Shown here piece by piece: positions 22,506 through 22,700 of a stretch of 64,000 nt of DNA; the first letter of the stretch is position 1, and the number at the start of each line of letters is the position of its first letter. The translations under genes and the position numbers were made by a program. Origin of the DNA: a virus (Duplodnaviria; Caudoviricetes); the IMG/VR virus record IMGVR_UViG_3300007083_000004, positions 96,001 through 160,000 of that record; one strand, given 5' to 3'. Under the pieces are notes generated by a model that saw only the letters and a program-made list of their open reading frames with translations, was not told where the DNA came from and did not search any database.

Positions 22506-22700
22506 GGAAGGTAATAACGTTTTTCTCCATTTCGTTATTATTTTCTTTCGCCTTTGTTTGTCAAGGATAATGTTTCCTATATTTCCTTTTCATTATCCTT
22601 GACACAAGGGGTTGTTGCGAGAGAGTGCCTTTATTGGGTGTAAAGGTGAGTGTAGGAGTAAGACCTAGGTATAGCCTTTCGGCTATACCTAGGCATCCTT
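22506..22700 (+). ncRNA. Candidate sRNA with C/U-rich anti-SD loops and its own terminator
   Basis: Three hairpins with G-U wobbles on the + strand, then CCTAGGTATAGCC-TTTC-GGCTATACCTAGG and a U-run; no ORF. Confidence 0.5.

Follow-up and report, generated by a model that had tools for sequence, protein, structure and literature searches.

TU237 of phage phiKZ is a 141-nt RNA validated by Northern analysis (PMC10914365). The c4 RNAs of phages P1 and P7 act in trans on mRNAs of their own phage through two single-stranded regions, one of which occludes a ribosome binding site (RBS); they are cut from a longer transcript, RNase P cutting at a GGW start (PMC5320573). No sRNA of a lytic jumbo phage with a demonstrated target was found in the literature searched. 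The gene-class switch in nucleus-forming phages has been explained so far by the separation of two polymerases alone. A 2023 paper calls the early-to-late switch of these phages unknown and reports that Gp55 peaks at 20 min, with a slight fall afterwards. During phiKZ infection an 11-mer directed against the chmA Shine-Dalgarno (SD) sequence, and oligomers directed against the gp55, gp68 and picA mRNAs, silence those genes (PMC12571901). Short pairing at an RBS is thus feasible as a silencer of these very genes; PNA oligomers bind more strongly than RNA would.

The window analysed here is a 64,000-nt stretch (bases 96001-160000) of a viral record of 200,349 bp that is 31% GC and 89% complete. 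Coordinates are window positions unless marked genome. The source is an uncultured nucleus-forming jumbo phage of the Chimalliviridae. The chimallin gene is at 45215, and phiKZ orthologues are present for gp55, gp67 (ChmC), gp68, gp69 (PicA), gp71-73, gp74 and gp123, the last outside the window at genome 8901. We take the orthologues of gp55, gp68, gp71-73, gp74 and gp123 to be the five subunits of this phage's non-virion RNA polymerase (nvRNAP). Support for these five proteins as the non-virion RNA polymerase also comes from published work (PMC7598289). The phage's closest known relatives, the RSL2/RSF1 group, share about 50-51% protein identity with it, and searches of 5.8 billion proteins and of IMG/VR gave nothing closer. 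A 1073-aa autotransporter (PF03797) is encoded at 29163-32384; its sole relative found is a Bartonella protein with 27% identity, which could possibly hint at an alphaproteobacterial or arthropod-associated host.

An element of about 195 nt (22506-22703) in this phage displays three hairpins followed by a terminator, with two open loops. Its parts are as follows.

22509..22543, + strand: hairpin 1, a stem of 11-14 bp with two G-U pairs; pair probabilities 0.53-0.99, the inner eight pairs at least 0.97
22520..22532, + strand: loop 1, 13 nt, complementary to the UGGAGAA class of RBS (PicA, gp74, gp123)
22544..22624, + strand: hairpin 2, of 8 + 6 + 13 bp with two bulges; the inner 13-bp stem is perfect Watson-Crick
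22573..22590, + strand: loop 2, 18 nt, complementary to the AAAAGGAAAU class of RBS (gp71-73, ChmA, gp55, ChmC, gp68)
22627..22647, + strand: hairpin 3, 8 bp, -7.9 kcal/mol; the internal complement of loop 2 includes its 3' arm
22641..22658, + strand: complement of loop 2 inside the element, weakened by G-U pairs; 16 bp and a single bulge, -16.3 kcal/mol
22664..22709, + strand: intrinsic terminator, a perfect 13-bp hairpin, a 5-nt gap and a U-rich tail

The + strand folds at -73.1 kcal/mol (z -6.6), a value equalled by none of 200 shuffles, which confirms the three hairpins and terminator of the original prediction. The - strand folds at -61 kcal/mol (z -7.4), and the z-score alone cannot decide the strand. 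The + strand is favoured because of the G-U count, because the terminator U tract is on + only, and because the internal complement of loop 2 works on + (-16.3 kcal/mol versus -9.3 on -). G-U wobbles had been said to mark all three stems and to point to the + strand; there are indeed two per stem, six in all, versus one on -. The + fold is also the more stable by 12 kcal/mol. Loops 1 and 2 are both open, at an opening cost of about 0.05 kcal. The element is 39% GC versus 24-33% in most intergenic DNA. A genome-wide catalogue lists a dozen large-loop intergenic hairpins; among the large and stable intergenic loops of the 200-kb genome, loops 1 and 2 alone are C/U-rich and have matches in many start regions.

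The unit had been described as free of open reading frames. This holds merely in the sense of no credible gene, since two 50-aa open reading frames overlap the element without a usable SD; they run across the terminator, and a small-protein reading was rejected. A tRNA, tmRNA or intron was likewise rejected, none being detected. No Rfam covariance model, including those for C4, RNAIII, RsaE, 6C and CsrB/Rsm, matches 22506-22700 up to E=1. There is no second copy of the element in the genome, and the idea that it arose by recent inverted copying of a gene start was dismissed, as no match exceeds 14 nt. The 5' GGA (22506-22508) can pair with UCC (22696-22698) before the U tract, with a probability of 0.3. 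A near-consensus sigma-70 promoter (11/12) is formed on the minus strand (22564-22537) from a hairpin 2 arm and is directed into an upstream 99-aa gene; access of host polymerase to this DNA is not expected. Other strong intergenic folds, of about -63 to -77 kcal/mol per 200 nt, occur at 2170-2400, 16135-16335, 32485-32685 and genome 14047-14250, and none of these four stretches has anti-SD loops.

The element sits in a lineage-specific island that begins after a conserved 410-aa gene, beyond which no synteny was found in sister contigs. Three tRNAs lie 1.9 kb downstream of the element. The flanking features that bear on its transcription are given below.

21784..21821, + strand: terminator hairpin after the 410-aa core gene; it holds the nearest upstream TATG (21793-96)
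21900..22473, + strand: two small genes upstream, of 86 aa (phrog_419-like) and 99 aa (orphan membrane protein)
22713..22800, + strand: early promoter of the 126-aa gene downstream, with its leader; position weight matrix (PWM) score 17.1 at 22735

Early promoters of the ATATATTAC type, modelled as a PWM, are readily recognisable in this phage. None is present upstream of the element on either strand (best score -1.4), and from this missing promoter, as the sole basis, we infer a timing after the early phase. The 88-nt block at 22713-22800, comprising promoter, leader and start codon, is repeated identically at about genome 49334-49421 before an unrelated gene; judged by this identity, the shared block is a recent promoter duplication. 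Since this duplicated block provides the promoter of the downstream 126-aa gene, the element is not the leader of that gene, and a role as 5' leader or attenuator was rejected on that ground. In phiKZ late promoters strictly require TATG and middle promoters cannot be predicted (PMC7598289). No TATG is found at the 5' end of the element, and a middle-promoter search gave no usable motif near it and no strand-biased motif even in phiKZ. The TATG at 21793-96 could possibly start a longer late precursor, the motif being at chance density (0.5-0.6 per 100 intergenic nt). The two small upstream genes, of 86 and 99 aa, may share a transcript with the element. The element has its own intrinsic terminator. 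A similar hairpin precedes 13 of 22 early promoters in the phage, and with a terminator in this position being routine, the 3' hairpin alone does not prove a stand-alone gene.

Several other open reading frames of the surrounding region are of note. The 86-aa gene (21900-22160) and a 109-aa gene (26211-26540), both in the island around the tRNAs, have N-termini that look alike by eye. A 72-aa open reading frame at 25715-25933 matches positions 1-66 only of dihydrofolate reductase and appears truncated or frameshifted. The 234-aa gene at 23325-24029 has a weak match to the HNH-endonuclease family at its N-terminus and its own early promoter upstream.

The predicted targets within the window, ranked among the 188 start regions tested, are the following.

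59560..59572, + strand: nvRNAP gp71-73, RBS and A of the start codon; best target, 13 bp with loop 2, rank 1/188
61768..61776, + strand: nvRNAP gp74 SD (start 61781); loop-1 target, 9 nt, rank 2
56164..56172, + strand: leader of the phiKZ gp69 (PicA) orthologue; loop-1 target, 9 nt, rank 1
45200..45211, + strand: chimallin ChmA RBS; loop-2 target, 12 bp with one G-U, rank 4
47311..47321, + strand: nvRNAP gp55 RBS; loop-2 target, 11 nt exact, rank 5
52703..52713, + strand: RBS of the ChmC (phiKZ gp67) orthologue; loop-2 target, rank 12
54572..54581, + strand: nvRNAP gp68 RBS; weaker loop-2 target, 10-nt core only, rank 39

The leader of nvRNAP gp123, outside the window, is a loop-1 target of rank 4/188. 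Loop 1 (22520-32), loop 2 (22573-90) and the complements at 59560-72, 56164-72 and 61768-76 were all found in the places originally given; the gp123 and ChmA leaders are additions to that set. After a correction for accessibility gp71 ranks 1, gp74 3, ChmA 5 and PicA 8, and gp123, gp68, gp55 and ChmC drop to ranks 27-41, with gp55 at 35. The predicted duplexes are A/U-rich and modest, at net -7 to -12 kcal/mol. Home-made approximations were used for gene calls, for the operon rule and, in place of IntaRNA, for duplex energies.

Match lengths by themselves are weak evidence. It had been cautioned that AT-richness inflates chance matches. When loop 1 is shuffled, 188/400 trials give a 9-nt match to at least one start region, and the step from the 10-nt core of loop 2 to 13 nt, in any one of 15 genes, has a chance of 0.36. 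A fully shuffled loop 2 gives a 13-nt match in 3/400. The fit to the target set is stronger evidence than any single match. Counting duplexes of -9 kcal/mol or better, loop 2 pairs with 41/188 start regions (300 shuffles: mean 10, maximum 36, 0/300 reaching 41) and loop 1 with 13/188, which 8/300 shuffles equal. Comparison with shuffled controls, a check proposed at the outset, supports the anti-RBS reading on these home-made energies. The antisense 10-mer of the commonest RBS has a single intergenic occurrence, which is loop 2, and the RBS word itself stands at gene starts in 15 of its 19 copies.

Preference for particular genes was also detected. The five nvRNAP subunits pair at a mean of -12.0 kcal/mol versus -6.8 for random genes (0/100000), and loop pairs made as perfect antisense to other genes fit the nvRNAP equally well in 1/1500 draws (0.07%). 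Of the two RBS cores, one or the other is present in 36 genes, and among these the eight key genes (the five nvRNAP subunits, ChmA, ChmC and PicA) average -12.0 versus -10.1 kcal/mol for the others (p=0.0015, in a post hoc test on a target set partly chosen post hoc); the leader flanks therefore fit as well as the cores. Clustered nvRNAP and nucleus genes may share leaders for unrelated reasons. Predicted early-operon genes were matched in 15/37 cases versus 24/151 for others (p=0.0025), and about 7/44 late or structural genes were also matched. In seven other chimalliviruses the orthologous leaders are poorer partners for the loops, with per-phage means of about -7 to -8 kcal/mol.

Homologues of the element were not found by blastn in phages, nor by exact and gapped pattern searches in IMG/VR. 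A metagenome search gave ten matches, all chance, and covariance models run in both directions detected nothing beyond terminators. With no homologue found, there is no covariation to report. The same loop screen was run on eleven genomes and yielded three analogues, and for this reason RNAs with an anti-SD appearance are a real class in chimalliviruses. One is phiKZ TU237 (AF399011 274149-274009, minus strand), which begins at a TATG, extends exactly 141 nt and lies upstream of PHIKZ302. Its fold shows a pair of C-rich loops together with a third hairpin and a terminator, and it is conserved across Phikzvirus only. No perfect partner for its loops exists in the phiKZ genome, they do not fit the phiKZ nvRNAP leaders, and with the model of the element it scores 10.3 bits, below plain terminators.

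Another analogue is an unannotated RNA of about 155 nt, transcribed from an early promoter beside thyA (RSL2 AP014693 146236-146394, minus strand) and present in six Chiangmaivirus genomes: RSL2, RSF1, FLC6, FLC8, SURPRISE13 and RsoM3USA. It was not detected in one related contig. Two UCUCC motifs are invariant and the stems covary, with double changes in 13/64 pairs. On this sequence evidence it is a candidate anti-SD RNA of cultured Ralstonia/Burkholderia phages. With the thyA-RNA model the element is the top match in the window (+ strand, 21.2 bits versus 17.3 for a plain terminator, a 4-bit margin); it went unreported in a filtered genome search and there was no reciprocal match. The element has neither an early promoter directly upstream nor a position beside thyA.

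The remaining analogue is at RSF1 AP014927 196290-196520 (minus, strand provisional), with counterparts at RSL2 196353-196457 and in FLC9 near 295412. Its 12-nt loop in RSF1 matches the SD/start region of nvRNAP gp55 over 11 nt to the A of AUG (rank 1, -19.2), resembling in this reach loop 2 on gp71. The gp55 leader of SURPRISE13 is identical to that of RSF1; RSL2 has the same loop with one leader mismatch, and FLC9 a similar loop with no match. Among the ten other chimalliviruses screened, no two-loop unit tuned to nvRNAP leaders was found, and a loop tuned to an nvRNAP leader was present in RSF1 only. With this single case among ten, nvRNAP targeting is not established as a general feature of the family.

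What the computation shows is the fold of the element, its terminator and a pair of open loops with preferential complementarity to nvRNAP and nucleus-gene leaders. As in an anti-SD sRNA, the fold is stable with unpaired SD-complementary loops, and there is a 3' terminator of its own, which is a generic cassette. The best explanation is that the element is a + strand, trans-acting anti-RBS sRNA of about 195 nt that brakes nvRNAP and nucleus genes, a proposal to which we assign an even chance. The idea of an anti-RBS regulator had been put forward originally; the target-set statistics speak for it (none of 300 loop-2 shuffles, and a preference for nvRNAP and nucleus genes among same-core genes), and against it stand the lack of a promoter for a discrete transcript and of a homologue in which loop conservation could be seen. 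The candidate RNA would be produced after the early phase, either from an unrecognised promoter or by 3'-end processing of the 86-aa/99-aa transcript. It would reach the cytoplasm and pair over 9-13 bp of the SD region without Hfq, loop 2 acting on gp71-73, ChmA, gp55, ChmC and gp68, and loop 1 on gp74, gp123 and PicA. Such pairing would block 30S loading and so cap the production of nvRNAP and of the nuclear shell, and about 30 other genes with the same cores would be damped more weakly. More speculatively, the G-U-rich internal complement may latch loop 2 and be displaced by long Watson-Crick matches only. In its fullest form, the hypothesis is that a two-loop RNA with a G-U latch shuts off the whole nvRNAP/nucleus module (five subunits, ChmA, ChmC, PicA) once the nucleus is running, a negative feedback in the early-to-late switch in which the RBS word serves as the loop address; this fuller version is tentative and rather unlikely.

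The internal complement of loop 2 (22641-58), a feature absent from the original prediction, competes with trans targets for this loop; it may be a specificity latch, a rival fold or the real job of loop 2. It is the basis of the main rival explanation, rather unlikely in our estimate, in which a structured + strand RNA has loops that work inside the molecule or bind protein, the transcript of the 86-aa and 99-aa genes has its 3' end stabilised or gated by a pseudoknot or switch between loop 2 and 22641-58, and the resemblance to RBSs is incidental. The internal duplex (-16.3 kcal/mol) indeed surpasses the best trans duplex (-14.5). Its four departures from a perfect complement are all A-to-G and all keep G-U pairs, and the long form has a shuffle p of 0.003-0.008 (post hoc). 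The missing promoter, and a terminator that would be the usual end of the upstream unit, also fit. However, the 16-bp form costs hairpin 3 (-7.9 kcal/mol) and cannot thread an 18-nt loop, and the nested fold is 8 kcal/mol worse than the minimum free energy structure. A short form is possible, as 22648-58 is unpaired and allows an 11-bp pseudoknot (p 0.05-0.11 on its own, post hoc); in such a model the last six bases of loop 2 (22585-90) could be left free as a toehold. For loop 1 there is no good partner inside the molecule (-6 to -7), yet it fits PicA, gp74 and gp123, and the fit to eight key leaders is left unexplained.

A generic anti-SD RNA directed against host mRNAs or all purine-rich RBSs, a host shut-off device like the UCUCC-loop RNA of RSL2/RSF1, is unlikely. 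In its favour, 9-21% of the start regions pair with the loops whichever chimallivirus is tested, the RNA of the sister clade is preceded by an early promoter and its invariant UCUCC loops are untuned to nvRNAP, and the TU237 loops are without a perfect partner in phiKZ. The canonical SD, however, pairs poorly with both loops (-6.8), which copy private RBS words of the phage together with their flanks, and the early promoter that a shut-off RNA would need is missing. It is improbable that the locus is a cluster of palindromes and terminators, or a site acting at the DNA level, with no regulatory RNA and with U-rich loops that match A-rich RBSs by chance in AT-rich DNA. There are 78 intergenic palindromes of at least 12 bp in the genome, the island is lineage-specific with no homologue, and single match lengths are unremarkable; yet the usual palindromes have loops of at most 8 nt and perfect stems, whereas the element differs in its 13-nt and 18-nt loops, in showing G-U pairing on a single strand and in its GC content, and composition-matched shuffles fail. 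The original prediction also raised transcription of the minus strand, with GGA motifs serving as a CsrA/RsmA sponge or ribosome decoy, and this we regard as very unlikely. The minus-strand z-score, three ANGGA words in loops and a minus-strand TATG at 22731-28 are in keeping with it. That TATG, however, belongs to the duplicated promoter block, and TATG is frequent at the density given above; the minus strand has one G-U pair versus six, a deficit of 12 kcal/mol and no terminator. Neither CsrA nor Hfq genes were found in the phage record (89% complete). Csr sRNAs have many short hairpins with small GGA loops, and two long hairpins with loops of 13 and 18 nt are unlike the CsrB/RsmZ layout.

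If the element does act as an anti-RBS RNA, an RNA tuned to polymerase and shell leaders would add a translational layer to the phage gene-class switch. This reading is testable with E. coli reporters, and phiKZ TU237 and the two RSL2/RSF1 RNAs are testable in real infections.

Comparison with known systems shows likenesses and differences in each case. TU237 is from the same phage family and, like the element, has a pair of long hairpins whose loops are rich in pyrimidines, a further hairpin, a terminator and a location upstream of a tRNA region; it differs in its TATG late-promoter start and Northern validation, in C-rich loops that do not fit nvRNAP leaders, and in showing no sequence or covariance-model similarity to the element. 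The thyA RNA of Chiangmaivirus, the nearest cultured clade, likewise has hairpins and a terminator and keeps two UCUCC motifs open, but differs in its early promoter, its length of about 155 nt and loops that are not tuned to nvRNAP leaders. With the c4 RNA the element would share action in trans on mRNAs of its own phage through two single-stranded regions and, possibly, processing from a longer transcript. In contrast, c4 is 77 nt long, serves temperate-phage immunity and directs both regions to one target, whereas in this lytic phage each loop reads a separate RBS class; the element also has no Rfam match. RNAIII, RsaE (PMC4152353) and mycobacterial 6C (PMC6486639) offer a precedent for Hfq-independent pairing of loops with many SD regions, but these RNAs are bacterial, with C-rich UCCC loops and strong G-C pairing, whereas the loops of the element are U-rich and copy the phage's own RBS words, again with no Rfam match. 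SviR of the phage satellite PLE is a trans-acting sRNA that lowers translation of lytic-phage mRNAs (bioRxiv 2022.04.08.487710); unlike the element, it is encoded by a parasite of the phage and not by the phage for its own programme.
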